This document shows positions 21,181 through 44,514 of a DNA stretch of 45,194 bases, piece by piece; the stretch's first letter is position 1; the number at the start of each line of letters is the position of its first letter. The stretch spans positions 1 to 45,194 of the forward strand of contig JABABO010000058.1 in the NCBI GenBank assembly GCA_014238195.1, written 5' to 3'. The notes beneath the pieces are model-generated. The model was not told the origin of the DNA and ran no database searches. It worked only from the letters and a program-made list of their open reading frames with translations. The position numbers and the translations under genes are program-made. The stretch is from Kordiimonadaceae bacterium (GTDB lineage: Bacteria > Pseudomonadota > Alphaproteobacteria > Sphingomonadales > Kordiimonadaceae).

Positions 21181-22119
21181 GTGAAAAAAAACGAGCAGAA
21201 AATTCACATGCCCTCGTTTGCAACATTGAGAAGTTTTGAATGTGCAGCACGTCATGAAAGCTTTACCCTAGCTTCGGAAGAGCTGCACCTTACGCAAAGC
21301 GCGATCAGCCGACAGATAAAGGAACTGGAAGCTATAACGGGCATTATACTTTTCAGGCGTGTTGGAAGACGTGTGGTGTTAACCGATGCAGGGCGGGTGC
21401 TTGCGAAGGATATTTCTGTTGATCTTGAACGGGTGTATGAAACCGTTTCTCGTGCGGTATTGGCAGGAAATGAGCGATCAGTTTTGAAGGTTGCGGCCTT
21501 ACCCACTCTTGCTGATCGGTGGTTGATTCCGCGCTTACCTAGGTTCATAAATCAAAATCCAGACATAAAAATTAGCATGTCTACACGGCTGGAACCTTTT
21601 GATCTGAACAAAGAAAGATTTGACATGGCAATCCATTTTGGTGCTGCAGATTGGCCTGATACCAAAATGGTAAAACTGTTTACAGAAAAATTGTTTGCAG
21701 TGGCTTCAGTGGCTTTTAAGAATCAGCATAACATCAATGACGAAATAACTATAAACGAAGTCCCCCTGCTAAACCTGAATTCACGGCCAAACGATTGGAG
21801 TGACTGGTTTAGTAATATTGGCACCAACATTGGTCATATTAACTACGCCATGCAGTTCGATCAGTTTTCTATGATAACTGCCGCCGCCAATGCGTCTTTG
21901 GGCGCTGCTCTCCTGCCGTCCTATTTAATAGAAAAAGAGCTCGCAAATAGAGATCTAGTGTGTCTTAGCAAAACGCCGTTATTGACCGAAAATAAATATT
22001 TTGTCGTCACGCCATCGGGTAATGAAAACCCACAAGTCAACAAATTTATACAATGGATTAAATCGGAAATTGCATCTGGTCTGGCTTTTCCTATGGCGGA
22101 ACAAGATGCAACACTATAG
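21181..22119 (+). CDS. LysR-family transcriptional regulator (GcvA-like)
   Basis: HTH region FATLRSFECAARHESFTLASEELHLTQSAISRQIKELE. GTG 21181 has AGGGGGA upstream; ATG 21208 is an alternative start. The stop codon TAG (22117-22119) lies inside the 106-bp repeat. Confidence 0.88.
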   Translation: MKKNEQKIHMPSFATLRSFECAARHESFTLASEELHLTQSAISRQIKELEAITGIILFRRVGRRVVLTDAGRVLAKDISVDLERVYETVSRAVLAGNERSVLKVAALPTLADRWLIPRLPRFINQNPDIKISMSTRLEPFDLNKERFDMAIHFGAADWPDTKMVKLFTEKLFAVASVAFKNQHNINDEITINEVPLLNLNSRPNDWSDWFSNIGTNIGHINYAMQFDQFSMITAAANASLGAALLPSYLIEKELANRDLVCLSKTPLLTENKYFVVTPSGNENPQVNKFIQWIKSEIASGLAFPMAEQDATL

Positions 22120-22230: not shown

Positions 22231-23193
22231 TTAGAAATCCCGTCGCAGCGCTGTTACCATTTCTAGGGTCGCAGTGGCCAGATTAATACGGTCCTGAAGC
22301 GAGCGCATGATAACATTTGTGTTTTCAACCGCTATGCCCAGCTCCTCGATTTCACTTGTGAGGGAGGTATCGGTATCATCTATAATCCAGCCATCAACAA
22401 TGTCTTGATAATGGGCCGCGATCTGCCGGCTTGAACAGGCCAAGCCAAGCTCCTGCATGATTTTTGATGTTGGCCCTTTGAGCGAATCACCAGCAACAAC
22501 GGGCGATATACCAATAACACAGGCTTTGCTGGCGGCCAGCAGGTCACGTACATTTGGTAAGGCTAATATGGGTTCCATGCTCAAGTACGGATTGGATGGA
22601 CATAAAATAAAGGCATCAATGGTGTCGCTTTCTAGTAACTGTTGGAACCGACTGGTGGGCAGAGCCGTTTCAATACCGTCAAATGAAATCTCTCGCACGG
22701 CAGGTTTGCATTGGTGCTTTACAAAATATTCCTGAAAATCAAGGATGCCGTCATCGGTTGTTATCCTCGTTCGGACAGGGTCGTCGCTCATGGGAATGAT
22801 TTGATTGTTTATGCCGCGTCTGCGTGCGAGTTGCTGTGTTATGTCGCTCAGTGACATACCAGCTTGAAGCGCAGCCGTGCGATAAACGTTGGTGGCTAGG
22901 TCCTTGTCGCCAAGTTGGAACCATGTCTCGCCGCCAAGCTCTTTTAGTGCGGACATAAACGACCAAGTTTCGCCATTTCTACCCCAGCCAGTTTTCGGAT
23001 TTTCCAGACCAGACAGTGTATAAAGCAAAGTGTCAATATCAGGGGAAATATGAAGCCCCAAATGCTGAAAATCGTCGCCTGTATTGACCACAAGGCTTAG
23101 GTTTTCTGGGGATAGAACTTTGGTCAAACCCAATGCTAGCTTCGCCCCACCCACGCCGCCTGTAAGGGCAACTATGTTAAGGTCTTTGCTCAC
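22231..23193 (-). CDS. cofD: 2-phospho-L-lactate transferase (F420 biosynthesis, CofD/FbiA)
   Basis: N-terminal signature ALTGGVGGAKLALGL...VVNTGDDFQHLGLHISPDIDTLLYTL. Confidence 0.9.
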   Translation of the reverse strand: MSKDLNIVALTGGVGGAKLALGLTKVLSPENLSLVVNTGDDFQHLGLHISPDIDTLLYTLSGLENPKTGWGRNGETWSFMSALKELGGETWFQLGDKDLATNVYRTAALQAGMSLSDITQQLARRRGINNQIIPMSDDPVRTRITTDDGILDFQEYFVKHQCKPAVREISFDGIETALPTSRFQQLLESDTIDAFILCPSNPYLSMEPILALPNVRDLLAASKACVIGISPVVAGDSLKGPTSKIMQELGLACSSRQIAAHYQDIVDGWIIDDTDTSLTSEIEELGIAVENTNVIMRSLQDRINLATATLEMVTALRRDF

Positions 23194-23990
23194 TGAAATA
23201 AATCCCGGTCTTTTGGTCTTACCAAGGGCGCTGTGTGCACTGCTGGATCAAGCCTTGAAACGTTAAGGCCCCGTAAAACAACGGCTGGCTTGCCTTCTGC
23301 CCCTTGCCCCATCAGTAGCGCCGCTGCCGCCGCCACTTCGTCTGCGATAGCCACTTCGGAAACACGAAGTTCACGGCCATATAAGTCTATTGAAGCGCGT
23401 AAATCCACAACAGCTGGTATCCCAGCAATACCGATTGCGTGTCCTGCTATCCCGTTTCTCCAAGCCCTGCCAATACTGTCGCTCACAATAACCGCAATAT
23501 TGACACCCAAGCGTTTTTTGAGCTCTGCTTGCAAATCACTCGCGGATTTATCTGGGTCAACGGGCAACAGTAACGCCGTATTATCCGTAACATTTGACTG
23601 GTCAATGCCAGCGTTGGCCATCACGAAACCAAGGGTGTGCCTAACAATAACAAGGCCGTCCATCTGGCGAACAACTTCGGATGATTCGCTCAAGATAAGC
23701 TCAACAAGTCGCGGGTCTTTACCCGTTTCATCTGCGAGCTTGCATGCAGCAGGGGAAGGGGTGACAGATTTTAGCTGGACCAAGCGCCCTTCTGCTTTCG
23801 AGACTATCTTTTGGGCAAGAACTAAGACGTCATTGTCGCGCAGTTCAATGTTAGTAGCGCTAAGCCCTTGCGTGATAATATCAGCAAGATTGTCCCCTTC
23901 ATTGACCATGGGGATGCCTGCAAGCGCATTAAGTTCAACATGGTCAGCCGTATAATCTTGGCTCAAGATATTTTCCTTTTTGGCAGCCAT
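23190..23990 (-). CDS. cofE: Coenzyme F420-0:L-glutamate ligase (CofE; ligase domain only)
   Basis: 266 aa, with AGIPMVNEGDNLADII and LVLAQKIVSKAEGR motifs typical of CofE. There is no C-terminal nitroreductase-like domain. An ATGA overlap joins it to cofD. Confidence 0.85.
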   Translation of the reverse strand: MAAKKENILSQDYTADHVELNALAGIPMVNEGDNLADIITQGLSATNIELRDNDVLVLAQKIVSKAEGRLVQLKSVTPSPAACKLADETGKDPRLVELILSESSEVVRQMDGLVIVRHTLGFVMANAGIDQSNVTDNTALLLPVDPDKSASDLQAELKKRLGVNIAVIVSDSIGRAWRNGIAGHAIGIAGIPAVVDLRASIDLYGRELRVSEVAIADEVAAAAALLMGQGAEGKPAVVLRGLNVSRLDPAVHTAPLVRPKDRDLFQ

Positions 23991-26353
23991 TTGGGCACAT
24001 TGTTTACCAAAGGTTTCAAGGGCTGTTCCTTTAATACATGGTCAAGGCGGCGGTCATCTATTTTGTTATACAGTGTGGTGCGTTGCTGGGGGGTGCGGTT
24101 AATGTCCCTGATCAGCTGCTCCATCTGTGCAGCAGAACATTCCTGACCATGTTGGCTACCAGCAGCCCTACTGATACTTTCGTTCATCAAGGTACCACCT
24201 AGGTCGTTGCAGCCAGCCTGCAGACATGCTTTCGCACCGTCCAACCCCATCTTTGTCCATGAGGTTTGAATATTGTCGATAAAAGGGTTTAAAACCAGTC
24301 GGGCAACAGCATGCATTAGGACAGCTTCACGGTAAGTCGGGCCAGACCGTGCTTGCCCCCTTAAATAGACGGGTGCTTCCATATGAACAAAGGGTAACGG
24401 GACAAATTCTGTGATGCCGCCTGTTTCTGCTTGTAGATGCCGCAGGTGCAGTAGGTGCCGTGCCCAGTGTATCGGCTTTTCGATATGACCAAACATAATA
24501 GTGGAGGTCGTTTTTAGTCCAACCTTGTGTGCTGTAGATATGACATCCAGCCATTCTTCAGTGCCCAATTTATCTGAGCATATTTGTGTACGAATTTCAT
24601 CATCGAGTATTTCTGCGGCTGTACCTGGTAATGAATTTAACCCTGCTTGCTTCAACTGTTCCAGAAAATTGGCAACTGTCATGCCGTTGGTTTTTGCGCC
24701 TTGGGAAACTTCAAGTGCTGAAAATGCATGGATGTGCATTTCTGGCACGGCTGCTTTGATTGCCCGGCATATTTCAAGATATGTTTCGCCTGTATAGTCG
24801 GGATGAATACCCCCTTGCAGACACACTTCTGTTGCGCCGCGGTCATACGCCTCACGGGCTCTGCGCGCGATCTCATCCAGTTCCAAGTCATACGCTTTGC
24901 CGCGCAGCTTTTCATTCTTCTTACCTTTGGAAAATGCACAGAAAGTGCATTTAAAGGTGCAGACATTTGTATAGTTGATATTTCTGTTAATGACGTATGT
25001 CACCTTGTCCCCTACGTGCGACCGTCTCAGATTGTCAGCTGCGGTGCAGACCATTGTAAAGGCTTCACCCCTCGTCTTAAAAAGCTGTACAATTTCGCCT
25101 TCGGACAGCTCGTCACCACTGGTGCACCGTGAAAGAAGGGATTGCAAAGTTTGACCTTGCGGTGCTGATCTGCTGACCTGTTTTATAGGCACAGCAGTTT
25201 TAATGTTTGGTATGGCAATATTTTGGCCAGGTGACCAAGCGTCTTCCTTTGGGTAGCCTTCGCTGTCGGTACACTGGGTTACAGGTGTCAAAAATTTGCG
25301 ATCAAGCCATTTTTCGGTATTCTCGGTATACTCAGGATAAACAGCTAATCGTTCCACAAGTTCTTTACCTGCGTCCTGTATTTGCTGTCGCAGGACTTCT
25401 ATGTGGGGCCAAGGTGCTTCTGGGTTCACAAAATCTGGGGTAACTGGTGACACACCGCCCAGATCGTTTATCCCAGCGGTAATCAGTTGATGCAGCTCAC
25501 CCTTATTCAAATTAGGTGGTGCTTGGATATTCATCGTGCTGCCAAAGATCAGACGGGTTGCTGCGATGGTCCAGACAAGCTCATCTATGGTGGCGGCGGG
25601 CGCATCTGACATTTTTGTATCGGGTTTTGGACAAAAGTTTTGAATGATAATTTCTTGTATATGCCCATATTCAAGATGCAGGTCATGTAAGGCACGAAGC
25701 GACTGCAATCTTTCTTTCCTAGTTTCGCCGATTCCAATCAAAATACCAGAAGTGAATGGCACTCCCAGCTTTCCAGCTTGGCGAATAGTTTCCAAACGTA
25801 TGGCGGGGTTTTTGTCTGGTGATCCGTAGTGCGGGCCGCCTTTCTCGCATAGTCTTTGTGAGATGTTTTCCAGCATCAACCCCTGCGAAATCGATACTTT
25901 CCTGAGCATGGCGATTTCTTCGCCAGACATCACACCAGCATTGATATGAGGAAAGAGCCCAGTTTCCTTGAAAACCAGTTCCGCCATCTCTGCAACATAT
26001 TCGAGCGTTGTACTATGGCCCAGTTTGGCCAATTCCTGACGTGCGACTTTGTATCTCAGTTCGGGTTTGTCACCTAAGGTAAATAAAGCTTCCTTGCACC
26101 CAGCTGCGGCCCCTGCGCGTGCCACCGCCAATACTTCGTCGCGTGACATATAGGCACTTTGCAGGTTGCGCGGCGTTTTTGCATACGTACAGTAATGACA
26201 CGTGTCTCTGCAAAGCCGTGTGAGCGGAATGAATACTTTCTTTGAAAAACTGATGGTTTCGCCGTGAGTTTTATTGCGAAGCTGTTGTGCAATGTCGAGC
26301 ATATCATGCGTCGCTGTATCCGCTGTGACCGAAAAGTTAGAAGTTTCAAACAT
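23963..26353 (-). CDS. fbiC: Bifunctional FO synthase FbiC (CofG + CofH radical-SAM domains)
   Basis: 796 aa with two CxxxCxxC radical-SAM motifs, CRDTCHYCTY (N-terminal half) and CTFKCTFCAF (C-terminal half). Confidence 0.93.
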   Translation of the reverse strand: MFETSNFSVTADTATHDMLDIAQQLRNKTHGETISFSKKVFIPLTRLCRDTCHYCTYAKTPRNLQSAYMSRDEVLAVARAGAAAGCKEALFTLGDKPELRYKVARQELAKLGHSTTLEYVAEMAELVFKETGLFPHINAGVMSGEEIAMLRKVSISQGLMLENISQRLCEKGGPHYGSPDKNPAIRLETIRQAGKLGVPFTSGILIGIGETRKERLQSLRALHDLHLEYGHIQEIIIQNFCPKPDTKMSDAPAATIDELVWTIAATRLIFGSTMNIQAPPNLNKGELHQLITAGINDLGGVSPVTPDFVNPEAPWPHIEVLRQQIQDAGKELVERLAVYPEYTENTEKWLDRKFLTPVTQCTDSEGYPKEDAWSPGQNIAIPNIKTAVPIKQVSRSAPQGQTLQSLLSRCTSGDELSEGEIVQLFKTRGEAFTMVCTAADNLRRSHVGDKVTYVINRNINYTNVCTFKCTFCAFSKGKKNEKLRGKAYDLELDEIARRAREAYDRGATEVCLQGGIHPDYTGETYLEICRAIKAAVPEMHIHAFSALEVSQGAKTNGMTVANFLEQLKQAGLNSLPGTAAEILDDEIRTQICSDKLGTEEWLDVISTAHKVGLKTTSTIMFGHIEKPIHWARHLLHLRHLQAETGGITEFVPLPFVHMEAPVYLRGQARSGPTYREAVLMHAVARLVLNPFIDNIQTSWTKMGLDGAKACLQAGCNDLGGTLMNESISRAAGSQHGQECSAAQMEQLIRDINRTPQQRTTLYNKIDDRRLDHVLKEQPLKPLVNNVPKWLPKRKIS

Positions 26354-27102
26354 TAAACGCCTCCCGCTAACCTAGTTTCATCAGTGAAATAATTTGGTTC
26401 ATAGGCGATATCAGCGTTACAGGTTTCCTGAATTTTGTCAGCAATGCCACTGGTTGATACATAGTGTTGCGTGTGCGATGAACAGCGCCGCTTCATCAGC
26501 GCGGCGATATCTTCTTCTGTATCTATATCCAGCCCCAAACCATCTAGTTTTTCAATGTTTACAGTCAGACCGCTTTTATGGGCAGATTTCTGGGCAAGCT
26601 GTCTGTGCTTTTCAAAGGAATTGAGGCCAAACGAAAATGGGATCACCGAACGGCGTGAACAAGCAATACTATTGGTCCCAGTACAAGCTTGGTCGGGAAC
26701 AATAGTGATGCCCCTATGTGTCAGAAGATTCTGACAAACCTGATCTATTTCTTGACTGGTAACCAGTGGAACATCACCTGGAAGTGTTATGATATTCGCA
26801 ACACCGTCATCAAATAGGGCTTGCGCTGCCATCTCAACCGATGCTGAAAGGCCAATGTCACCGTCTGTTCTGATAACACGACCACCGAATAATTGAGCGC
26901 GGGATATAGTATAGTCATCACAGGTAACGACGACCAGACCCTTAAGAAAACGGGCCCCGTTAATTGCAATCAGAACATCTTCAAACATTTTTTCAGACAG
27001 GGCCTGACGTTCGAATTTGGACAAACTATGCCCTAAGCGCTGCTTGGCTAAATGACGTGATTTTAATGGCAAGATAGCCCATATTTGATCATCAGACTGC
27101 AC
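26353..27102 (-). CDS. cofC: Phospholactate / phosphoenolpyruvate guanylyltransferase (CofC/FbiD)
   Basis: ILPLKSRHLAKQRLG, TGTNSI, FGLNSFEKH and LDIDTEEDI match the CofC pattern. A 1-nt TAATG overlap joins it to fbiC. Confidence 0.82.
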   Translation of the reverse strand: MQSDDQIWAILPLKSRHLAKQRLGHSLSKFERQALSEKMFEDVLIAINGARFLKGLVVVTCDDYTISRAQLFGGRVIRTDGDIGLSASVEMAAQALFDDGVANIITLPGDVPLVTSQEIDQVCQNLLTHRGITIVPDQACTGTNSIACSRRSVIPFSFGLNSFEKHRQLAQKSAHKSGLTVNIEKLDGLGLDIDTEEDIAALMKRRCSSHTQHYVSTSGIADKIQETCNADIAYEPNYFTDETRLAGGV

Positions 27103-27773
27103 TAATCGGTTCCAGTAATTTTTATTCCTGCACCATGAATTCCGTATTTTTTGTTAAGGAAAATAAGCACGGATGTCAATGCTTCACCCACGACAGAATT
27201 ATCAATTGGCCCAGCATGCCAGCCACGAAGACCTGTTGCCTCTACCAGTTGTAATACTTGCTCGCGAGCATCATTGCTATTACCAAATACCAGCACGTGA
27301 CTGTCATCTTGAGAATTTTCATCTTGCAAATGAGCTGCGGCGACATTGTGAAATGCTGAGACGACCTTAACATTATCACCGAGAAAAGTTTGTGCCGACT
27401 TGGCAACCGGCCATTCATCGGTTAGCTGAACTCGGGCAACCTTTGGCGGCACTAAGGGTACCGTTGTATCAACCAGAATTTTGCCTTGGACTGCATCCTT
27501 AATATCTTCAAGTGTTGAATTGTGATGCGCGTTTGGTACGGTGAGCACAACAATGTCTGCTCCCAGTGCGGCTTCCACATTACTAGCGGCCCTAACAGTA
27601 GAAGAGGGAACTTTCTCTTTTAAAGCCGCTGCTGCTGCGATTGCTTTGTCTTCAGACCGTGAACCAATGACAACATCATATCCTGCCAGTATCCAACGAT
27701 AGGCAAGGCCAGAACCAAGGGAGCCTGTTCCTCCCAATACTGCTATGCGCGGGCGTGTTTGTGAATCTGTCAT
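27102..27773 (-). CDS. fno: NADPH-dependent F420 reductase (Fno/NpdG)
   Basis: 223 aa with the Rossmann start IAVLGGTGSLGSGLAYRWILAGYDVVIGSRSEDKA. It is embedded between the thioesterase and cofC genes with overlapping stop/start codons. Confidence 0.82.
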   Translation of the reverse strand: MTDSQTRPRIAVLGGTGSLGSGLAYRWILAGYDVVIGSRSEDKAIAAAAALKEKVPSSTVRAASNVEAALGADIVVLTVPNAHHNSTLEDIKDAVQGKILVDTTVPLVPPKVARVQLTDEWPVAKSAQTFLGDNVKVVSAFHNVAAAHLQDENSQDDSHVLVFGNSNDAREQVLQLVEATGLRGWHAGPIDNSVVGEALTSVLIFLNKKYGIHGAGIKITGTD

Positions 27774-28222
27774 GTTTCATTTCCTTTTTTAGCCGTGAAA
27801 TTCTTATTTTCTAACATAGAGTAGCAGGCCCGTCCAACCGCAATAAGCCGCTCATTTTTATTGAATACATCGACATCAATAAGCGCAATTGATCGGCCTG
27901 ACTTGCGAATGTGCGCGTTAACAACCAGATCTGTATCATGACCTGGGTATAGATAGTCAGTCCTAAAGTTAACCGTTGGTCCAAGCTCGTCAGCCACCAT
28001 GAGAAGGGCGTAGCAGCCAACTGAATCTATCGCTGCTGAAATGGCACCGCCATGCCACTGGTTTGTGCCAGGTTGCCGCTCCAGTGTTTTGGACATTTTT
28101 AGCTTAGCGCTGAGTGTAAGGGTCTCATAGTCAATGCTTGTAATCTCGGGCGTGAAAAGTTGATGAAACTTTGATTTTTCTATCTGTGCCTGAATGTCCG
28201 AACATGTAAGTTGATTTGACAT
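27770..28222 (-). CDS. PaaI-type hotdog-fold thioesterase
   Basis: 150 aa with the WHGGAISAAIDSVGCYA motif characteristic of PaaI/4HBT-class thioesterases. Confidence 0.75.
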   Translation of the reverse strand: MSNQLTCSDIQAQIEKSKFHQLFTPEITSIDYETLTLSAKLKMSKTLERQPGTNQWHGGAISAAIDSVGCYALLMVADELGPTVNFRTDYLYPGHDTDLVVNAHIRKSGRSIALIDVDVFNKNERLIAVGRACYSMLENKNFTAKKGNET

Positions 28223-28232
28223 AATTATCCAT

Positions 28233-29165
28233 TCAGACAGCTGTCATCTTTTGTAATTCTGGTAAGATTTCAGTCGCGAATTTCTCGACGTACGCCATCC
28301 TTTCTTCAGGAGGCATAACAAGCGCTATAATCAGGTGATTGGTCCCTGCCTTAACATAGTCTGCCAAGGTCTCAATGATACGCTCATTGGGGCCGTACGC
28401 ACAATATTTGTCTACAATCTTTTCAAACGGCATGTTGAACCTGTATGATAATTGCTCAATTGCTCTGTTCCGAGCCTCTTCCACATCGTCATGTTGGCTG
28501 ATATACATGAATGTTGTGTAAGCAAAATCTGAAGGGAGTTCCCTTCCCAGATCATCCGCAAAGCCACGGACTTTAAAAATTGATTCTTTGAGCTGATCAG
28601 GCGTGTACATGTAGGGCTGCCAGCCATCACCCAAACGTGCAGCGCGGCGCATAGCAGGATCACTTCGACCACAGACCCAAAGAGGGGGTCCATCCTTTTG
28701 ATAAGGACCTGGCAACATCTCAACATCTTTTAATTGGAAAATTTTCCCGTCATAGCTAAAAGGTTCCCCAGCCCAATATTTACGCATGATTTCAATGCCC
28801 TCATTGGTACGGACCCCTCTTTCTTTCATAGAAACGCCCAAAGCTTCAAATTCGCGAGGATAGTCCCCCCCAATGCCAACAGATGCGATCAATCGGCCCT
28901 TTGACAGGATGTCAATCGACGTCAATTCTTTTGCCATCATAGTGGGGTTTCTCAACGGGAAAATGAGAGTAGACGGCAACAGTTTAATGCGTTTGGTCAC
29001 AGCTGCAGCATAGGAAAGAACTGTCACAGTATCCAAAATTGGCCGAAAAAACAGAATATGCTCACCTGTTGTTAAAATATCGAAACCGTGCTCTTCCACT
29101 TTCGATATCTGTTCAGGTTCCCAAACGTCTCCATCAATATGAAACCCTATTTGAATTCTTGGCAT
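28233..29165 (-). CDS. Luciferase-like monooxygenase (LLM) class oxidoreductase, probably F420-dependent
   Basis: 310-aa LLM fold pattern (LSKGRLIASVGIGGDYPREFEALG, GPPLWVCGRS..RRAARLGDGWQPY). F420 dependence is inferred from context. Confidence 0.7.
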   Translation of the reverse strand: MPRIQIGFHIDGDVWEPEQISKVEEHGFDILTTGEHILFFRPILDTVTVLSYAAAVTKRIKLLPSTLIFPLRNPTMMAKELTSIDILSKGRLIASVGIGGDYPREFEALGVSMKERGVRTNEGIEIMRKYWAGEPFSYDGKIFQLKDVEMLPGPYQKDGPPLWVCGRSDPAMRRAARLGDGWQPYMYTPDQLKESIFKVRGFADDLGRELPSDFAYTTFMYISQHDDVEEARNRAIEQLSYRFNMPFEKIVDKYCAYGPNERIIETLADYVKAGTNHLIIALVMPPEERMAYVEKFATEILPELQKMTAV

Positions 29166-29194
29166 CGCGATTCTCCTTAGAACAAAGTCAACGG

Positions 29195-30688
29195 TTATGC
29201 GTTGAGCTTGCTTAAAACATATTCCTCAACAATTTCACGGCGTACTTTGCCTATAGCAGACAAAGGTATCATATCAATCTCGGTTAAAAATTCTGGCCAT
29301 TTGGCTTTATCCAAACCAGCTGCCGCGCAATGTGCACATAGATCGTCTAAGTTAACGGGCTCTGACGGGACAATAACCGCAGCTAAGCGTGATCCAAGCC
29401 TGTCATCGGGATACCCGACAATGGATACATCTGTAATCGCTGGATGCCTAAGAAGGACGTCCTCGGTTTCTAACGGTGAGATATTCTCTCCGCCGCGAAG
29501 TATAATGTCGCGGGCACGGCCACTCATGCTGATATAGCCATTATCAAGTTGAACAGCAGCATCGCCAGTTTTGTACCAGCCGTCTTCTCCCAAGCGATTG
29601 TCATGATCACCAGTCCAGTATCCCGTCATCATCTGAAACGGGCTATGGATTTCAAGTTCGCCGTCCCTGATCCGGACGCTGGTTCCTGGCAGCGCCCGAC
29701 CGTCGGTATACAAGCGTTCATCCAGTGTAGCATCAGGATCAACAGCGGTAACCGCCCCAGCCTCGGATGTGCCAAAATATGCCCATATTTCGCACTCTGG
29801 CATCGCTTTATAGGCACGTCGTTTCAACTCAGCGGGAACAGGTGCACCTGATGACGGGAAGTATTTAAGTGATTGGATCCGGCTGGTACCGTGTTCCTCA
29901 ACATATGTCACCATATCGACAAGAAACGGTGTAGGTGCAGCGGTAAAAGTACATTTATAGCGTTCAATTAGCTCAACGGCTGTCTCTACCCGCCAGCGTG
30001 AAACAAGAATCATCGGCGCATTGAGCGCCAAAGCCATCTTGACCCCAAAAAGAAGACCAACCGCATGGCCGACGGGCGACGAAACAAGGATCGGATCATC
30101 TTTGCTTAGGCTAAAGCGCTCAATGAAAACGTCTGTCTGGCGTTCAAATGTAGCATATGTATGCTTAGCTGCTTTTGGTGTGCCAGTTGTGCCAGACGTA
30201 CAGGCAAACCATCCCAGCTCATTGGCTGTTCGTTTTGGCGGTGCTTTTGGGCCTATAGGCGCTTCCACATCCTGAAAGCGTCGTTCCCCCAATTTTTCAA
30301 AAATAGGGTTATCGCCGACCAGATGTTCGGTCAAAATGACGCTTGCAGCGTCAAGAATATCGCCCAACTCCACGATACTTTTGCCCGCAGACCAAGGAAG
30401 GTTTATAAATATCGCACCACACAGTCGGGTAGCAAGATAATCGACAATATATTCAATAACATTTGGCCGGGCGACTATAACACGGCTGCCGACGGTTACC
30501 CCTTGAGCGATTAACTGCCCCGCCCGCTTGCGCGACTGTTCAATTAATTCCCCAACCGTGATTGTGCGATCTAGCTCTGCAATCGCAAGAGAGCCCGCAG
30601 GGCGTGCGCACAAGCGATCCCATTCTTCCCTAGCAAAATCTCTTTGACTTACATCAGGGTAATCGATGACACTTGAGAGTGTTGTCAT
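29195..30688 (-). CDS. AMP-dependent synthetase/ligase (acyl-CoA synthetase family)
   Basis: Adenylate-forming core motifs CTSGTTGTPKAAKHTY and GWYKTGD, plus the C-terminal lysine region GKVRR. Confidence 0.88.
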   Translation of the reverse strand: MTTLSSVIDYPDVSQRDFAREEWDRLCARPAGSLAIAELDRTITVGELIEQSRKRAGQLIAQGVTVGSRVIVARPNVIEYIVDYLATRLCGAIFINLPWSAGKSIVELGDILDAASVILTEHLVGDNPIFEKLGERRFQDVEAPIGPKAPPKRTANELGWFACTSGTTGTPKAAKHTYATFERQTDVFIERFSLSKDDPILVSSPVGHAVGLLFGVKMALALNAPMILVSRWRVETAVELIERYKCTFTAAPTPFLVDMVTYVEEHGTSRIQSLKYFPSSGAPVPAELKRRAYKAMPECEIWAYFGTSEAGAVTAVDPDATLDERLYTDGRALPGTSVRIRDGELEIHSPFQMMTGYWTGDHDNRLGEDGWYKTGDAAVQLDNGYISMSGRARDIILRGGENISPLETEDVLLRHPAITDVSIVGYPDDRLGSRLAAVIVPSEPVNLDDLCAHCAAAGLDKAKWPEFLTEIDMIPLSAIGKVRREIVEEYVLSKLNA

Positions 30689-30691
30689 AAC

Positions 30692-31711
30692 CTATATCTT
30701 CTTAATTTCCGTAACAAGTTTCTGAATATCGCTATCAGATAACCCGTCAAACCATGTTTCATCGATCTGGATACGGTGGACATAGGCGCCATATCGTTTC
30801 TTAAGCGCAGCAGGCAAGTTTTCTGGCTTTTCAATCACAGCATAGGCCTCAAGCATCTTATCGGACACTAAATGCGCCATTTCTTGCCATCTTTGTTCGC
30901 GCGCCATTTCGATGAAATCACCGAGGTTTACATCCCAGCCATGCATATCCAGCATTTTTTCATATTCTGGCGTGGAGGCATAAAGCGCCACGCGCTCCTT
31001 CAAGCCAAGGCGTACACGGTCAAGACCTTCATCTGTTGTTGCACAACCAATGAAACCATAACTGCCACGGTCAATGTCATTTAATGAACGTCCAGCTTTT
31101 TCAGCGCCGATTTCAAGGTTTGGCAGCATGACCTCTTCATACCATTTATAGGTAATGGGATCCCCAGGTAAATGCCCATCGGCCATTTTCCCCGTAAGCT
31201 GACACATCAGTTTGTTAATCGCAGCAAGATGAATGGGGGGCCGTTTAAAACCAAGAGGACCAGGATTATAATAAGGGATCATAAGGTCATGCTTATAATA
31301 TTCCCCTTGATAATTCAGTTTTGTACCATGTTCCCAGCAATCCCAGATAGCATGCAGTGCTTCAATATATTCGCGCATTCGCTTCACTGGTGGCAAATGT
31401 TCCATGCCAAAGCGTCGTGTCAAATGTGCCTTGATTTGAGTGCCAATTCCCAGCTGAAAACGACCTTTAGAAAGCGACTGTATAGACCAAGCATCGTAAG
31501 CCGTTGCCATTGGACTTCTTGGAAAGGCGACAAAAACACCCGTCAGTAAATTAACCTTACTGGTTACCATTGAGCCAGCAACAGCTGTAAGCGTTGGCGG
31601 AACTGTTAGTTCCAATAGGGTGGTGCCATCGTAGCCTAACTTTTCTGCGCGTGCTATTGCATCAGGCATTTCTTCTAGACGTTTGGGTCGTACCATAGAA
31701 TATACTTGCAT
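30692..31711 (-). CDS. LLM class oxidoreductase, probably F420-dependent
   Basis: 339-aa LLM fold (LSKGRFQLGIGTQIKAHLTRRFG). It starts 3 nt after the hyuB-like stop. Confidence 0.7.
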   Translation of the reverse strand: MQVYSMVRPKRLEEMPDAIARAEKLGYDGTTLLELTVPPTLTAVAGSMVTSKVNLLTGVFVAFPRSPMATAYDAWSIQSLSKGRFQLGIGTQIKAHLTRRFGMEHLPPVKRMREYIEALHAIWDCWEHGTKLNYQGEYYKHDLMIPYYNPGPLGFKRPPIHLAAINKLMCQLTGKMADGHLPGDPITYKWYEEVMLPNLEIGAEKAGRSLNDIDRGSYGFIGCATTDEGLDRVRLGLKERVALYASTPEYEKMLDMHGWDVNLGDFIEMAREQRWQEMAHLVSDKMLEAYAVIEKPENLPAALKKRYGAYVHRIQIDETWFDGLSDSDIQKLVTEIKKI

Positions 31712-31714
31712 AGC

Positions 31715-33406
31715 TTATGTTTCCCTTTTTACATGCCCATAATATTTTTGAATGAATGTTGGTGAAAACTTCCCACTGTCTTGATCAAGCAAGACACTGT
31801 CTGCTTGGCGTTCTGCCGCGCAGCCGTATCCGCCAGCGCCCGGTGTTTCTACCACTATGTTAGTGCCCTGCGGAACTGGAACTTCGTTTGGCTTGTCATC
31901 AAGCCTTGTTTCATTGGGCCCACAGCGCAAAATAAATTGGCCGGATTTTCCAGCTTCACCACCGAACAATCCCCAAGGCTGATAGCGAAAACGCTCACCT
32001 GCACCATTAAAGACGCATTCATGACCGACGGGCGTAAGGACACGGCGAAGCCCCATCCCGCCACGTTGGCGACCTGCACCGCCAGAATCTTCAACAAAAC
32101 AATATTCAATCACTCTAAGCGGATATTCCTGTTCAATGGATTCAACAGGTAAATTCGAGGTGTTGGTAATGCCGACTTGAACGCCGTCCTTCCCGTCTTT
32201 ATGAGCCCGCGCCCCCATGCCGCCGCCCAGTGTTTCGAAATACACATAAGGCTTGCCATTTCTAGGGTCATTACCAGAGAATACCGCCGTTGTGTTGGCG
32301 CCGTTTGCCGCGGCAATTACGTGTTCAGGCAGTGCTTTCGAGATCGCGCCCAACACGACGTCAATAACCCGTTGGCAAGCGTGTGCCCGTGCAGCAACTG
32401 GTGCAGGGAAGACAGAATTTAACAAGGTACCAGGCTCGGCTAAAATTTCAACGACATCCAAAACACCTTGATTGCTTGGCATGTCAGCGTCAAGAGACGC
32501 AATCAAAGCATAACACACACTGGCCTGAACTGCGTTGAGGGTCGTATTAATATTGCCCCTTACCTGCAAACTTGTGCCTGCAAAATCCACACATATCTTA
32601 TCGCCTTTAACTGTTATGGATACGTGAATAGGGATGTCAAATGTCGATACGCCGTCCCCATCCATAAAGTCTTCAAATTCATACGTACCATCAGGTATTT
32701 GGCTAATAGCAGCTTTCATTCTGAGTGCAGTCCGCGCGATAATTTCATCAAATGTTGCAAGAATTTTGGGTAGGCCGTGCACGTCTACAACTTCCTGAAA
32801 ACGACGCGCTCCAAGCTTGCATGACGCTATTTGGGCGTTGTGGTCACCCTTGCGTTCCTCTGGTACGCGCACATTCAGCATCAAGATGTCCATAACATCT
32901 GTTTGAAGTTCACCGCGGGAAAACAATTTTACCGCAGGTATCCTCAAACCTTCCTGAAATATCTCAGTCATGCCGCCAGCCATCGATCCTGGGACCATGC
33001 CACCAATGTCCGCATGGTGTGCAATATTACAAACGAATGCTGCCAATTCTCCACCAACAAACAAAGGCATCGCGTAGTTGATGTCGGGCAAGTGCGTACC
33101 CCCAGCAACATAGGGATCATTGGCAACAAAAATATCGCCTTCATGAATATCGGAGCCATATTTGCTGAGAACACTTTTCATCATGCCGCCCATAGAGGCA
33201 ATATGGATGGGGAGCGTCATGGCAGCCTGAACAACCAATCGCCCTGACTTGTCAACAATAACGATAGAATGATCATTGCGCTCTTTAATATTCGTAGAGA
33301 AAGCTGACCGCATAAGAGCAACAAAACATTCATCGGCGATAGATCGCAAACTGTTTGAAATAATTTCCAAGCTAATGGGGTCTAGTTTTTGTGGCTGGGT
33401 ATTCAT
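31715..33406 (-). CDS. Hydantoinase B / oxoprolinase family protein
   Basis: 563 aa. N-terminal LDPISLEIISNSLRSIADE and internal NDPYVAGGTHLPD are typical of the HyuB family. A 1-nt TAATG overlap joins it to the A subunit. Confidence 0.88.
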   Translation of the reverse strand: MNTQPQKLDPISLEIISNSLRSIADECFVALMRSAFSTNIKERNDHSIVIVDKSGRLVVQAAMTLPIHIASMGGMMKSVLSKYGSDIHEGDIFVANDPYVAGGTHLPDINYAMPLFVGGELAAFVCNIAHHADIGGMVPGSMAGGMTEIFQEGLRIPAVKLFSRGELQTDVMDILMLNVRVPEERKGDHNAQIASCKLGARRFQEVVDVHGLPKILATFDEIIARTALRMKAAISQIPDGTYEFEDFMDGDGVSTFDIPIHVSITVKGDKICVDFAGTSLQVRGNINTTLNAVQASVCYALIASLDADMPSNQGVLDVVEILAEPGTLLNSVFPAPVAARAHACQRVIDVVLGAISKALPEHVIAAANGANTTAVFSGNDPRNGKPYVYFETLGGGMGARAHKDGKDGVQVGITNTSNLPVESIEQEYPLRVIEYCFVEDSGGAGRQRGGMGLRRVLTPVGHECVFNGAGERFRYQPWGLFGGEAGKSGQFILRCGPNETRLDDKPNEVPVPQGTNIVVETPGAGGYGCAAERQADSVLLDQDSGKFSPTFIQKYYGHVKRET

Positions 33407-35481
33407 TATTTTGCTCCCGGATCAATTTGGATAATTAGGTGCCCGTCCGGCGTTACCTCAGCATAGTCACCTGGGTAGATAGGTGTTGTTGTATCTAACT
33501 GTTCAATGATGGCTGGGCCGTGGATAGTGTGACCAGGTCGCAAGTCAACACGTGAATAAACATTTGTTTCGAAAGAATTTTCAGGGTCGCTAAAATATAC
33601 CTGTCGAGTTTCACGTGGCTGTAGAGTGTCATCCACTGTCTTTTCCAGCTGGGCAGTCGTTTCCCTATAGAGCTGCGCAGTCGCCGACATGCGAATGTTC
33701 ACAACCTCAATGGCATCGTCTATACTTGAATAACCATAAGCCATTTCATGAGCATCGCAGAAGTTGGCTTGCAGCCCATCCAATGTTGGCAGGTCATCCG
33801 CTGTCAAATTATTACCTTCAGCAACGGGGACTGCTAACTCAAAGTTCTGCCCCATATAACGAGCATCAACCACGAGCTGTAGTTGCCTGTTTTCAGCGGG
33901 TACATTTTCGTCATCAAACCAGATTTCAGCCGCACCCTTTAAGGATGTGAGGGAGCGAGCCAATATCGCCAAACCCTTTTCATCGACCATAAATCGGCGG
34001 CTTTCAACAAAAGCTTCTTTCAGATCTGAAACCAACAAGCCCTGTGCACAGACGATACCCGGGGATGCTGGTACAACGATCTCACGCATACCAAGGCTGA
34101 CAGCCACATCACGCGCATGGAGCGGCCCCGCACCACCAAACGGCATCAATACGAAGTCCCGCGGATCATGTCCGCGCTCCACAGAGATCATTCTAATTGT
34201 TCGCACCATATTTGCGACAACAATGCCAAGGGCGCCATGCGCTGTTCGCTCAACAGAAAAACCAAGCTGATCTGCCAATTCCTTGTAGGCATCAATTGAT
34301 AACTTGGGGTCCAGCCCCATATCACCGTCCAAAAGTCCGCGCGATGAAAGGCGCCCCAGCAATAAGTTTGCATCTGTTGTCGTTGGCTTGGTGCCGCCAC
34401 GCCCATAACAGGCAGGACCTGGGGCTGCGCCAGCACTAATTGGACCAACCTTTAACAGTCCATCCCGGTCAAACCACGCAATGGACCCACCGCCAGCACC
34501 AACTGTTTCCACATCGACACAAGGCAGGCGTATTGGAAACCCAGTCACATCACGATCAAAGGTCAAATCTACGCTAAAATCACGAATAAGGGCGACATCA
34601 GCACTGGTTCCGCCCATATCAAGTGTAATGACATTTCGACGATCTGTTTGCATCGAGACATGCCCAGCCCCTACAGCGCCCGCAGCGGGGCCAGACAGGG
34701 CTGTCCGTATAGGAAACTCTCTGGAAGTTTTGGGGGACATTAATCCACCACTAGACTGATTTATACCCAGAGAGGCATCAGGGGCACGGTCGCTAATGCC
34801 GTCTTCAAGTGTCTGCAGGTATCCCCACATAACGGGTTGAAGGTATGCATTCAGCACCGTCGTTGACAGGCGCTCATATTCGCGAAACTCTGGTTGAACC
34901 TCAGACGAGAGCGAGAGAACGATCTCTGGTGCGCGTTTGCGTAACGCTTGTGCTACAAGTTTTTCGTGCGCGTCATTACGAAAGGCAAACAAAAATCCGA
35001 TAGCGCAGGCTGAAGCACCAGACGCTATGACTTGATCCACCACAGCATCAATATCTTCTGCCGTCGGCTCCACCACGACCTGACCCGCAGCATCCATTCT
35101 CTCATGCAGTTCAAATCGTTGCTCGCGGTCAACGAGCGGAGCAGGATGATCTTTTTGCAGGTCATACATATGGGGCCTAGTCTGCCGACCAATTTCCAAC
35201 AAATCACGGAATCCCTTGGTGGTAATCAGGGCCACTGTACTTCCCGTTCTTTGAATGAGCGCATTTGTCCCAACCGTCGTACCGTGGGAGAGACGCTCTA
35301 TCTCAGCTAAGGGAATGTCATAATGCTTACAAAGCGCATCTAAGCCGCCCAGTATAGCATCCGCGGGATTGGAGGGCGTTGACGATGTTTTCCAAACATG
35401 CGTCGTCCCGTTCTTACTATTGGTTGCGTAAAAATCGGTAAACGTTCCACCTACATCAACACCTATAATCCAACTCATCAA
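33406..35481 (-). CDS. Hydantoinase A / oxoprolinase family protein (ATP-dependent)
   Basis: 691 aa. IIGVDVGGTFTDF at the N-terminus and DMGGTSADV are ASKHA-fold motifs of the HyuA family. Confidence 0.88.
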   Translation of the reverse strand: MMSWIIGVDVGGTFTDFYATNSKNGTTHVWKTSSTPSNPADAILGGLDALCKHYDIPLAEIERLSHGTTVGTNALIQRTGSTVALITTKGFRDLLEIGRQTRPHMYDLQKDHPAPLVDREQRFELHERMDAAGQVVVEPTAEDIDAVVDQVIASGASACAIGFLFAFRNDAHEKLVAQALRKRAPEIVLSLSSEVQPEFREYERLSTTVLNAYLQPVMWGYLQTLEDGISDRAPDASLGINQSSGGLMSPKTSREFPIRTALSGPAAGAVGAGHVSMQTDRRNVITLDMGGTSADVALIRDFSVDLTFDRDVTGFPIRLPCVDVETVGAGGGSIAWFDRDGLLKVGPISAGAAPGPACYGRGGTKPTTTDANLLLGRLSSRGLLDGDMGLDPKLSIDAYKELADQLGFSVERTAHGALGIVVANMVRTIRMISVERGHDPRDFVLMPFGGAGPLHARDVAVSLGMREIVVPASPGIVCAQGLLVSDLKEAFVESRRFMVDEKGLAILARSLTSLKGAAEIWFDDENVPAENRQLQLVVDARYMGQNFELAVPVAEGNNLTADDLPTLDGLQANFCDAHEMAYGYSSIDDAIEVVNIRMSATAQLYRETTAQLEKTVDDTLQPRETRQVYFSDPENSFETNVYSRVDLRPGHTIHGPAIIEQLDTTTPIYPGDYAEVTPDGHLIIQIDPGAK

Positions 35482-35533: not shown

Positions 35534-35562
35534 GTAGTATACTACACATAATGCTGAGTCAA
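35534..35562 (-). promoter_or_regulatory. Candidate promoter and operator of the hyuA-to-cofD operon
   Basis: On the minus strand, TTGACT (35562-35557) is followed by a 15-nt spacer and TATACT (35541-36). The perfect 12-bp palindrome GTAGTATACTAC (35534-35545) overlaps the -10. The spacer is shorter than optimal. Confidence 0.4.
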
Positions 35563-35831: not shown

Positions 35832-36329
35832 ATGTCGGAACAAGTCGTGAAACGTCGCACTTTTAAGAAACTGTGGAGTCGCCCCGGATATCTGATTCGG
35901 CGATTACATCAAATACATGTGGCGATGTTCCTAGATGAATGCGCAGAATTTAAACTGACGCCAGTACAATTTGCTGTTTTAACCGTTTTGGACAGTGATG
36001 GTGTTCTGGATCAAATCTCTGTAGCCAAACAAATAAGTGCAGATCGTAATACTGTTGGCGATGTGTTAAGGCGTCTGGAATCTCGAGGCTTGATTGAACG
36101 CCCTGCAAGCGAAAATGACCGCCGTGCGAAACTTGCTCAAATTACCGAGAAGGGACGTAGTTTTGTCGAATCAGTGTTGCCATCTATGATAAAAGTACAA
36201 CGGGACCTCACAAGCGTTCTTACGAGGGAAGAAAATGCTGTACTGACCGACCTTTTGGTGAAACTGATAAAAGCAAATAAGGAAGCAAGTCGGTCTCCAA
36301 AGTCCAAGGACATTTCATTCGACCTTTAG
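35832..36329 (+). CDS. MarR-family transcriptional regulator
   Basis: 165 aa with a winged-helix region LTPVQFAVLTVLDSDGVLDQISVAKQISADRNTVGDVLRRLESRGLIER. Confidence 0.88.
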   Translation: MSEQVVKRRTFKKLWSRPGYLIRRLHQIHVAMFLDECAEFKLTPVQFAVLTVLDSDGVLDQISVAKQISADRNTVGDVLRRLESRGLIERPASENDRRAKLAQITEKGRSFVESVLPSMIKVQRDLTSVLTREENAVLTDLLVKLIKANKEASRSPKSKDISFDL

Positions 36330-37683: not shown

Positions 37684-38243
37684 TCTACTCCCACAGGGTC
37701 AGGGTCATCTGGTTCTGTGCCAGCCATTTCTGTGTCAGCCTGCTTTGTTTCAGGCAGTTCTGTGTCATCATGGGGGGCAAACACGGAATAGAGGAAATAA
37801 AGGCCAGCACTAAAGAAGCTATAGCTGATAATAACGCTCAGCCACCATTTTGGAATGGGATGGTTTCCCATAGTGCTAATATTGTGGATAAACTGGTATA
37901 TATTTTCTTGGGTGCTAAACCACGCGGCGGATACGCACGCCAACACTGCCAGTATGTTCCCCGCACGTCCAACCTGTGTCGCCATTGTAGGTGACATTTT
38001 TTCGGTCAGAAAGGAAACGGCAATATGCCTTTTTTCCTGTGTGATTTTTGGAAATCCAAGAAACACCATGGCGACGAGAAGGTAACTGACCAAATCGCCT
38101 GACCAGCTGGAGGGTGAATTAAAGCCAAATCTGGCGACAACTTGATAGATATAGGAAAGCGTAATCAGTGCAAGCGCAACACCGCTCAGAATGAAAGAAA
38201 GAGCTGTTACCTTATCATGAGCTGACTTTATACCCTGCAACAT
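37680..38243 (-). CDS. TRAP transporter small permease (DctQ family)
   Basis: Four predicted TM helices. I place the start at ATG 38243 (MLQGIKS..), 17 nt after the dctP-like stop. The 232-aa ORF from 38378 would overlap the binding-protein gene by 119 nt. Confidence 0.78.
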   Translation of the reverse strand: MLQGIKSAHDKVTALSFILSGVALALITLSYIYQVVARFGFNSPSSWSGDLVSYLLVAMVFLGFPKITQEKRHIAVSFLTEKMSPTMATQVGRAGNILAVLACVSAAWFSTQENIYQFIHNISTMGNHPIPKWWLSVIISYSFFSAGLYFLYSVFAPHDDTELPETKQADTEMAGTEPDDPDPVGVE

Positions 38244-38259
38244 GTTAAATTCGCCTGTT

Positions 38260-44495: not shown

Positions 44496-44514
44496 TCAAC
44501 GAAGGGTAACGGAC

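Follow-up and report, generated by a model that had tools for sequence, protein, structure and literature searches.

The stretch of DNA analysed here, referred to as the window, comprises 45,194 nucleotides (nt) of contig JABABO010000058.1 from a Kordiimonadaceae bacterium (assembly GCA_014238195.1), and contains an operon-like cassette in which genes for a hydantoinase-type enzyme, two luciferase-like oxidoreductases (LLM1 and LLM2), an acyl-coenzyme A (CoA) ligase and a thioesterase are followed directly by genes for the reduction and biosynthesis of cofactor F420. Eleven open reading frames (ORFs) run on the minus strand from position 35481 to position 22231, with junctions from hyuA to cofD of -1, +3, +3, +29, +10, -4, -1, -1, -28 and -4 nt. 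In the direction of transcription they encode HyuA, a hydantoinase/oxoprolinase A-type ATP-dependent subunit (33406..35481; 691 amino acids (aa), TTG start; Pfam Hydant_A_N, Hydantoinase_A and Hydant_A_C); HyuB, a hydantoinase B-type subunit (31715..33406; 563 aa; Pfam Hydantoinase_B, 599 bits); LLM1, a Mer-like luciferase-like oxidoreductase (30692..31711; 339 aa; TIGR03617, 322.5 bits against a cut-off of 278.15); an adenylate-forming acyl-CoA ligase (29195..30688; 497 aa; Pfam AMP-binding and AMP-binding_C); LLM2, a second, accessory luciferase-like oxidoreductase (28233..29165; 310 aa; TIGR03619, 178.5 bits against 166.9); and a hotdog-fold thioesterase of the 4HBT/PaaI/Them2-like type (27770..28222; 150 aa; Pfam 4HBT, PF03061, with PDB matches to Them2 and PaaI). 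These are followed by Fno/NpdG, an NADPH-dependent F420 reductase (27102..27773; 223 aa; TIGR01915 equivalog, 190.3 bits against 149.8); CofC/FbiD, a guanylyltransferase of the 2-phospholactate (2-PL)/phosphoenolpyruvate (PEP) type (26353..27102; 249 aa, GTG start; TIGR03552, 122.6 against 105); the FO synthase FbiC, a CofG-CofH fusion protein (23963..26353; 796 aa; NF006687, 1142.6 against 1018) in which the CofG and CofH domain models each score above cut-off; CofE, the F420:glutamate ligase (23190..23990; 266 aa; TIGR01916, 283.1 against 180.65; sole Pfam domain F420_ligase); and the CofD/FbiA transferase (22231..23193; 320 aa, GTG start; TIGR01819, 278.7 against 257.45).

The array and the range of its junctions (-28 to +29 nt) reproduce what had been described in an earlier reading of the sequence, hereafter the original prediction, and its gene calls are all correct by profile hidden Markov models (NCBIfam and Pfam), which back each of the 11 identities. 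Its account of the overlaps needs two small corrections. The 1-nt TAATG overlaps at 33406 and 26353 are as described and the one at 27102 reads TAGTG (Fno stop TAG, CofC start GTG); likewise, the ATGA overlap at 27770-27773 stands and the one at 23190-23193 reads GTGA, with the GTG start of CofD. Judged by this spacing, it is plausible that the eleven genes share one transcript. A scan for promoter and terminator consensus sequences inside the operon gave nothing convincing, with counts overall near shuffled expectation, and picked up a weak hairpin (29205-29188) at the +29 junction.

To place the cassette among its relatives, one genome per species was scanned with LLM1, yielding 66 loci (related loci are designated by L and a number). 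In about 40 of these, a MarR-type regulator gene adjoins a core of HyuA, HyuB, LLM1, the ligase, LLM2 (not in every locus) and the thioesterase, which is then followed by an F420 module; the core proteins are 62-88% identical to those of the window, and the placement of the transporter genes dctPQM varies. Recurrence of the gene set in about 40 further genomes puts the arrangement far beyond chance, and the gene neighbourhood is strongly conserved. LLM1 is the most conserved gene of the cassette, and in each locus the conservation of the ligase, LLM1 and the thioesterase equals that of HyuAB. The carriers are marine Alphaproteobacteria (Hoeflea, Rhizobiaceae, Hyphomicrobiales, Paracoccaceae, Rhodospirillales and Geminicoccales) and marine Gammaproteobacteria (Ca. 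Njordibacter, Oceanospirillaceae, Piscirickettsiaceae, Chromatiales, Granulosicoccaceae and Acidiferrobacteraceae), with locus GC contents of 43-72%; many are associated with sponges, corals or bryozoans, and two, Hoeflea sp. TYP-13 and Hoeflea poritis E7-10, are in culture. In a large protein collection that includes Tara and JGI marine data, more than 100 clusters consist of LLM1 orthologues with at least 70% identity, all of them under generic names. No flanking or accessory genes are shared beyond close relatives, no proteobacterial plasmid in PLSDB carries an orthologue, and no signal of recent transfer was found, the GC content of the cassette being equal to that of its flanks.

The F420 half of the operon has a history of its own. 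Compared with a typical cassette (L071), the core of the window is as similar as are the cores of other cassettes (HyuA 74%, LLM1 81% and LLM2 81% identity), whereas its F420 half is not: Fno is 55% identical (65-84% in other cassettes), CofE 48% (58-82%), CofD 48% (57-77%), CofC 29% (38-71%) and FbiC 59% (67-85%). The gene order also differs, being Fno-CofC-FbiC-CofE-CofD in the window and Fno-CofE-CofD-CofC-FbiC elsewhere. The nearest relatives of the window FbiC are encoded by metagenome-assembled genomes of Woeseiaceae and other Gammaproteobacteria (65-68%), and the closest sequence relative of the whole module is the Woeseiaceae-type module of L077 and L078 (Fno 70-72%, FbiC 66%, CofE 59%, CofD 56-57% and CofC 43-44% identity). 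Its order is that of the window apart from one extra gene, for an acyl-CoA dehydrogenase, between FbiC and CofE, and it serves other enzymes, namely a ligase, an alpha/beta hydrolase, an LLM, a short-chain dehydrogenase/reductase, an amidase, an enoyl-CoA hydratase and a MaoC dehydratase. By sequence identity and gene order, then, the window operon is a chimera of the shared core and a distinct F420 module. Because this module differs in order and sequence from those of other cassettes and matches L077 and L078, the core has acquired an F420 supply at least twice, and both of the non-orthologous modules join it at one and the same point, behind the thioesterase gene. Taken by themselves, the affinities of FbiC and of the F420 module would suggest a gammaproteobacterial host, whereas the assembly is classified in the alphaproteobacterial Kordiimonadaceae. 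Such independent recruitment of two modules argues that the core needs F420, and is the strongest argument available to us. It is also a clear natural case of a portable cofactor-supply module, which is relevant to the engineering of F420-dependent biocatalysis in Gram-negative hosts.

The original prediction had the whole cofactor pathway tied to one enzyme set. This describes most loci, and does not extend to some related cassettes with a partial cof set or none: among the 35 loci with enough downstream sequence, about 27 have Fno-CofE-CofD-CofC-FbiC, 4 have Fno-CofC-FbiC, 1 has Fno-FbiC and 3 are without cof genes, with Fno present wherever FbiC is. The three related cassettes that lack adjacent cof genes, together with the partial ones, are what would be expected if the linkage were accidental or merely co-regulatory, with the cof genes serving F420 enzymes encoded elsewhere and the Hyu/ligase set working independently of F420. 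We regard this explanation as very improbable, as it does not account for two non-orthologous modules arriving at one position, for the F420-type scores of both core LLMs or for the constant company of Fno and FbiC.

FbiC, CofC, CofD and CofE all exceed their model cut-offs, so the biosynthetic set named in the original prediction is present; to call the cassette self-contained was an overstatement. CofE is a single-domain protein without a nitroreductase fusion, and profile scans of the window ORFs of at least 120 aa returned no nitroreductase-family protein; self-containment is therefore not established. In Mycetohabitans, Ser162 and His145 of CofC mark the use of 3-phosphoglycerate (3PG), and enzymes using PEP or 2-PL carry Gly and Thr instead (Hasan et al., PMC8764529). 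When aligned with 7p97 and 6bwg, the CofC of the window has Gly (within F-G-L-N-S) at the S162/G163 position and Thr at the H145 position, so that classical F420, derived from 2-PL or PEP, is to be expected as the product. A Mycetohabitans-like route to 3PG-F420, which the free-standing CofE had suggested, was ruled out by these residues, which are Gly and Thr and not Ser and His. A saturated lactyl linker calls for a 2-PL source, a dehydro-F420-0 reductase or a CofC of the 3PG type, none of which is seen in the window; the missing function may be encoded elsewhere in the genome. In L011, L028 (3185-3985) and L067, a nitroreductase-family gene (PF00881, matched by no NCBIfam model) flanks the cassette and is a candidate for an FbiE-like dehydro-F420-0 reductase. 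The acyl-CoA dehydrogenase-family gene between FbiC and CofE in L077 (10372-11604) and L078 (10373-11605), which has no counterpart in the window, may be an overlooked part of F420 biosynthesis, for example in dehydro-F420 reduction. L070 (11294-14316), a close relative of the window cassette, has Fno and FbiC only; one possibility is that such hosts use FO itself, another that they keep cofCDE elsewhere in the genome.

The F420 operons described from Paracoccus and Oligotropha, and the 3PG-F420 cluster of Mycetohabitans, also unite FbiC, CofC and CofD with a CofE that stands alone, and in some cases have Fno and LLM genes close by. Those operons have no known physiological client pathway, whereas the cof genes of the window are embedded in a regulon of enzymes and a transporter, and its CofC is unlike that of Mycetohabitans in not being of the 3PG type.

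The most probable clients of the cofactor are the two LLMs, and both match F420-type families as the original prediction had anticipated, LLM1 convincingly (TIGR03617) and LLM2 by a narrow margin (TIGR03619). An AlphaFold2 (AF2) model of LLM1 (pLDDT 78.6) was compared with the PDB using Foldseek, and ranks 1-13 were held only by F420-dependent LLMs, led by Mer (TM-score 0.76-0.82) and followed by Fgd, FGD2 and Adf, with enzymes using flavin mononucleotide (FMN) lower. Plasmid-borne remote relatives of LLM1 in PLSDB are confined to Rhodococcus, Mycobacterium and haloarchaea, that is, to F420 producers. LLM1 is thus probably F420-dependent. The best PDB sequence match of LLM2 is 7bip, the monooxygenase RslO1, and its probable dependence on F420 is less certain than that of LLM1.

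The genomic company of LLM1 suggests that its substrate is a thioester, because LLM1 genes neighbour ligase or acyl-CoA genes in three further settings. In a second LLM1 clade (61-64% identity) the gene again adjoins one for an AMP-ligase; in Rhodococcus DK17 a relative lies among genes for acyl-CoA enzymes; and on plasmid pJCM12687 of Mycobacterium branderi (L079, 81-95 kb) genes for LLM1-like (37%), LLM2-like (36%), adenylate-forming (30%) and PaaI-thioesterase proteins are no more than about 10 kb away from one for a metal amidohydrolase. This last cluster, which is without HyuAB, may represent an ancestral or analogous core. The loci of the second clade (L074-L076) have a different AMP-ligase, CoA-transferase subunits, an aminotransferase and a gamma-glutamyltranspeptidase, with insertion sequence (IS) elements around them. 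The best NCBIfam matches of the window ligase are cyclohexanecarboxylate-CoA and medium-chain ligases, all far under cut-off and none at equivalog level, and the ligase had no PDB matches at E<=1e-40.

The direction of hydride transfer admits a second interpretation. The LLMs could be F420-reducing dehydrogenases, for instance turning a cyclic hemiaminal or alcohol into a lactam or ketone in the way that Fgd turns a hemiacetal into a lactone, with Fno passing the hydride to NADP+; or one LLM could oxidise and the other reduce, with F420 as an internal shuttle. Fno is reversible, the dehydrogenases Fgd, Adf and FGD2 are among the structural matches of LLM1, and such a scheme would explain where a lactam for HyuAB comes from without invoking an oxygenase. 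The closest structural relatives of LLM1 are nevertheless the Mer reductases, and the precedent of picrate degradation, with an Fno and two LLM hydride transferases, is reductive (PMC8498797), for which reasons we consider the reversed direction unlikely.

HyuA and HyuB were described in the original prediction as a ring-opening or carboxylating enzyme, and NCBIfam and PDB scores favour the first of these descriptions over the second. The best NCBIfam match of HyuA is caprolactamase alpha, at 545 bits against a cut-off of 1000, and the caprolactamase match of HyuB reaches 292.5 bits against 1000. In the PDB, HyuA matches the N-methylhydantoinase 7hk5 best (1e-147), followed by caprolactamase 6yra (3e-112) and, well behind, carboxylases (1e-62 to 1e-76); HyuB likewise matches 7hk5 (5e-79), then 6yra_B (1e-64), and the alpha subunit of acetone carboxylase at only 6e-20. 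By these scores HyuAB groups with the ATP-dependent lactam and hydantoin hydrolases and not with the carboxylases, and is a relative of caprolactamase CapA/CapB rather than a member of that family. Its closest sequence relatives, with which it shares domains and a two-subunit architecture, are CapAB (6yra), the N-methylhydantoinase 7hk5, HyuAB-type 5-oxoprolinase and NmpAB of N-methylpyrrolidone; it differs from caprolactamase in scoring about half the equivalog cut-offs, and we know of no link between any of these enzymes and F420, a CoA ligase or a thioesterase.

The carboxylase alternative would have HyuAB act as an ATP-dependent ketone carboxylase of the acetone or acetophenone type, whose beta-keto acid product is then activated with CoA and reduced. 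The proteins belong to the same superfamily, and acetophenone carboxylase is followed in its pathway by a CoA ligase. Besides the far weaker PDB matches, however, HyuAB reaches at most 273 bits with acetone and acetophenone carboxylase models whose cut-offs are 1250-1500, so that the equivalog level is missed; HyuB at 563 aa has the length of a hydrolase and not that of the 776-aa carboxylase subunit; no gene for a third (gamma) carboxylase subunit is present in the ORF list; and the solute-binding protein of the adjacent TRAP transporter implies a substrate that is already an acid. We therefore give a carboxylase role very little credence.

The eleven genes between 35481 and 22231 stand as originally delimited, and the functional unit appears to be larger, taking in a MarR-type regulator, its candidate operator and a TRAP transporter. 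The regulator gene (35832..36329, plus strand; 165 aa; Pfam MarR and weak NCBIfam MarR-type matches) is divergent from hyuA, and orthologues with 51-66% identity occupy the same position in more than 30 loci. A palindrome, GTAGTAYACTAC, is found exactly or with 1-2 mismatches in 31 of 31 MarR-hyuA intergenic regions, 44-241 nt upstream of hyuA, in a comparison that used exact k-mers; by chance, some 2 matches would be expected in 45 kb. In the window it reads GTAGTATACTAC (35534..35545, 64 nt upstream of the hyuA start) and is a candidate MarR operator. A second, degenerate copy, GACGTATACTAC (39432..39443, minus-strand reading), lies upstream of dctP, directly preceded by a promoter-like TTGACT-17-TACAGT (39474-39446), and comparable sites lie upstream of dctP in L011, L020, L028, L033, L041 and L067. 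Because the candidate operator occurs at hyuA and again at dctP, the enzymes and the transporter apparently form one regulon.

Some further features of these intergenic regions may be recorded here. Just upstream of the MarR start (35757-35788) are three tandem copies of AGTATCTGGC(N) with an 11-nt period, whose AGTATC core resembles a half-site of the palindrome; these may be extra regulator-binding sites. The MarR-hyuA region also contains a 15-nt inverted repeat, ACCGATGAATAATGA / TCATTATTTATTGGT (35625-35656, 87% complementary). L068 (about 4790-4810) and L069 (about 8520 and 8719) have no adjacent MarR gene and carry the palindrome variant TCAGTATACTGA or TCAGTATACTAC, which in L068 sits between hyuA and a soxBDAG-dctPQM array.

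The transporter genes, all on the minus strand, encode the TRAP large permease DctM (36373..37683; TIGR00786, 275.7 bits against 268.45), with orthologues (57-73%) beside almost every cassette; the small permease DctQ (37680..38378; YiaM-like match), whose ORF is probably over-extended at its 5' end, as orthologues align from residue 42-50 onwards; and the solute-binding protein DctP (38260..39369; NF037995). The DctP family is small and dedicated, a search of 5.8 billion proteins giving only 19 clusters with E<=1e-20, and has an invariant Arg within a conserved K-I-R-A-L stretch, which we take to be the carboxylate-binding Arg of DctP-type proteins. The AF2 model of DctP (pLDDT 86.8) finds 4mnc as its best PDB match, at 22% identity. 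An attempt to read the substrate from DctP homology was given up, as sequence and structure searches yielded only distant relatives (4mnc, TakP and SiaP) at 22% identity or less, whose entry titles name no ligand; 4mnc reportedly binds benzoylformate. A TonB-dependent receptor gene (39638-41971) lies on the same strand directly upstream of dctP and could, in this host, let the same substrate in across the outer membrane; it has no counterpart beside the cassette in L001-L067.

This uptake system bears on whether the cassette is catabolic at all. Several actinobacterial biosyntheses employ F420-dependent LLMs (PMC8498797), and many carriers are associates of sponges, corals or bryozoans, as might be expected of a cluster for a secondary metabolite. 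A biosynthetic function nevertheless strikes us as highly improbable, given a solute-binding uptake system, a MarR-type regulator with a candidate operator at both the transporter and the enzyme promoters, catabolic neighbours, and a cassette with no synthase, carrier protein or exporter.

Clues to the substrate come from genes flanking the cassette. The start of a heterotetrameric sarcosine-oxidase-type operon, soxB and soxD, lies at 43245..44802 on the plus strand (TIGR01373, 646.7 bits against 529.45, with SoxD identified by Pfam), divergent from a GbdR/SouR-like AraC regulator gene (42186..43169, minus strand; NF052371, 235.5 bits, under cut-off). On the other side of the cassette are PurU, a formyl-tetrahydrofolate deformylase (20120..20968, minus strand; NF004684, 385.2 against 223), and a GcvA-like LysR regulator (21181..22119, plus strand; NF008352, 253.6 bits, under cut-off) convergent with cofD. 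LysR genes with 29-40% identity adjoin the cassette in L013, L014, L016, L029, L035, L037, L069 and L070, and the GcvA-like regulator is possibly associated with it. The closest relatives of the window cassette, L068, L069 and L070, show related surroundings. In L068, soxB-soxD-soxA-soxG-dctP-dctQ-dctM form a single array divergent from hyuA, and the window SoxB is 80% identical to the SoxB encoded there between hyuA and dctP and 76% identical to that of L070, where a soxB-like gene and a GbdR-like regulator gene abut MarR. Within a few kb of the L069 cassette are PurU, soxG/soxA, a KamA-like aminomutase, a 3-oxoacid CoA-transferase and a class III aminotransferase, and class I/II aminotransferase genes occur at other loci, as does one for a fused 2-oxoacid dehydrogenase E1. 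Complexes of the sox type demethylate sarcosine or N-methylglutamate, and annotation cannot separate these activities. SoxBD likely acts in downstream demethylation in the sublineage of the window, with PurU perhaps handling the one-carbon units linked to N-demethylation. The presence of the sox, GbdR-like and PurU neighbours and the affinity of HyuAB for N-methylhydantoinase therefore point to a ring opening that gives an (N-methyl)amino acid, and the lactam, hydantoin or cyclic-amide substrate of the original prediction is refined by this sublineage context towards an N-methylated one.

The same neighbours could be read as a pathway of the creatinine/N-methylhydantoin type, in which HyuAB feeds sarcosine to sarcosine oxidase and the ligase, LLMs and thioesterase are unrelated or auxiliary. 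The best solved relative of HyuA and HyuB is labelled N-methylhydantoinase, soxBD, the GbdR-like regulator and PurU are adjacent, and sponge-microbiome studies reportedly annotate such genes as creatinine degradation. None of the 11 cassette proteins, however, matches the creatinine deaminase or N-carbamoylsarcosine amidase families, N-methylhydantoin offers no carboxylate to a TRAP/DctP system or a CoA ligase, and every locus conserves the ligase, LLM1 and thioesterase to the same degree as HyuAB, whereas only four have sox genes next to the cassette. A pathway of this type seems to us distinctly improbable.

Two known systems served as models for the likely chemistry. In the npd cluster for picrate and 2,4-dinitrophenol found in Rhodococcus and Nocardioides, the Fno is NpdG and the LLM hydride transferases are NpdC and NpdI. 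This catabolic cluster likewise combines an Fno-type reductase with two LLM-class F420H2 hydride transferases to ready an electron-poor ring for hydrolytic opening (PMC8498797), and differs in that its actinobacterial hosts make F420 constitutively, that it has no cof/fbi genes, HyuAB or TRAP transporter, and that its substrate is a nitroaromatic xenobiotic. The logic of attaching CoA, changing the ring and removing CoA is that of the 4-chlorobenzoate pathway, which comparably employs an adenylate-forming ligase and a 4HBT-fold thioesterase. That pathway consists of a CoA ligase, a ring transformation and 4-hydroxybenzoyl-CoA thioesterase; its ring step is a hydrolytic dehalogenation, whereas in the cassette F420-type LLMs stand between ligase and thioesterase.

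Our preferred reading, for which we consider the chances about even, is that the cassette is a catabolic regulon, apparently controlled by MarR, for the F420-dependent reductive degradation of an imported, probably N-methylated, electron-poor N-heterocyclic carboxylate. The dedicated DctPQM system would bring in the acid, and the ligase would convert it to a CoA thioester, thereby activating the ring or an adjacent double bond. The Mer-like LLM1, together with LLM2 where present, would then transfer hydride from F420H2, the hotdog thioesterase would take off the CoA, and ATP-driven hydrolysis of the resulting lactam or hydantoin by HyuAB would yield an open-chain (N-methyl)amino acid. In the sublineage of the window only, this product would be demethylated by the neighbouring sarcosine-oxidase-type genes and PurU. 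F420 would be made by FbiC, CofC, CofD and CofE and recharged from NADPH via Fno. An electron-poor N-heterocyclic carboxylate is the most likely substrate, probably N-methylated in this lineage. We infer the order of the steps, the direction of hydride transfer and the nature of the substrate from gene content, on the model of the picrate precedent and of the addition and removal of CoA in 4-chlorobenzoate degradation.

It should be noted that several observations count against this reading. The linkage to sarcosine oxidase is restricted to 4 of about 45 loci, and the cassette has no obvious lactam-forming enzyme for a pyridinium ring. DctP shares at most 22% identity with proteins of solved structure, and what it tells of the substrate goes no further than its being an organic acid. 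LLM2 passes the TIGR03619 F420 cut-off only narrowly, is missing from six related cassettes, and has remote relatives in Sinorhizobium as well, often annotated as flavin-dependent. Fno being reversible, the LLMs could act oxidatively. Three cassettes are without nearby cof genes and five have Fno and FbiC, with or without CofC, only, and the window encodes neither a dehydro-F420-0 reductase (FbiE or FbiB's C-terminal domain) nor a source of 2-PL.

A bolder form of the proposal, which we offer tentatively and think rather doubtful as a whole, would have Proteobacteria put F420 for the first time to a dedicated physiological use in this cassette: a mobile, oxygen-independent route for the dearomatisation and opening of an abundant marine N-methylated heterocyclic carboxylate through thioester activation, hydride transfer from F420H2 and ATP-driven lactam hydrolysis, with plug-in F420 modules recruited at least twice. 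Substrates that would suit it include a pyridinium betaine of the trigonelline or homarine type, an N-methylpyridone carboxylate or an N-methyl-lactam acid. The catabolism of homarine (homABCDER) and trigonelline (tgn) similarly converts marine N-methylated pyridine carboxylates to N-methyl amino acids with sox/mgd-type handling (PMC13236597), and differs in its oxygenase- and flavin-based chemistry (PMC13236597). The homarine hom operon was rejected as the same system, its paper (PMC13236597) describing flavin and oxygenase chemistry and using none of the terms F420, hydantoinase, luciferase, CoA ligase, thioesterase and TRAP.

The original prediction knew of no characterised pathway with this composition, and a full-text literature search for F420 together with the enzyme families of the cassette found none either. 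Each of the computational checks that it proposed turned out in its favour. All of the component families are known; it is the gene set itself that is undescribed in the literature searched. A 2021 review of F420 calls the F420-dependent enzymes of Proteobacteria unstudied and lists as an open question why Proteobacteria make the cofactor, and clusters of cof genes with Fno and LLM genes already appear in a published review figure (Fig. 10). The cassette offers defined client enzymes, a transporter, a regulator with its candidate operator, and cultured Hoeflea carriers, and because it supplies defined clients, a regulator and cultured carriers, the role of F420 in Proteobacteria becomes directly testable. 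As it is common in marine Alpha- and Gammaproteobacteria, host-associated ones included, it may also act as a sink, unrecognised so far, for some nitrogen-containing metabolite of the sea.

The remainder of the window holds genes of other kinds, and no rRNA or tRNA genes were found in it. A methyl-accepting chemotaxis protein gene lies at 18610-20016, where the AT skew is unusually high (0.33 at 19001-20000). A complete Tad/Flp pilus cluster occupies 3987-15883, with genes for TadB/C-like T2SSF proteins, the CpaF ATPase, CpaE, CpaD, the CpaC secretin, CpaB, a prepilin peptidase and TadE/TadG-like proteins. Between this cluster and the chemoreceptor gene, 15905-18021 encodes a HisN-like phosphatase (269.5 bits against a cut-off of 275.15) and a DAO-family FAD oxidoreductase. 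At the left end (1-3590, minus strand), a protein of at least 1197 aa with RTX repeats (GGxGxD) runs past the window boundary, and because this large protein spans the edge no ORFs are listed there. An RTX protein (PF00353) is also encoded near the cassette in L011.

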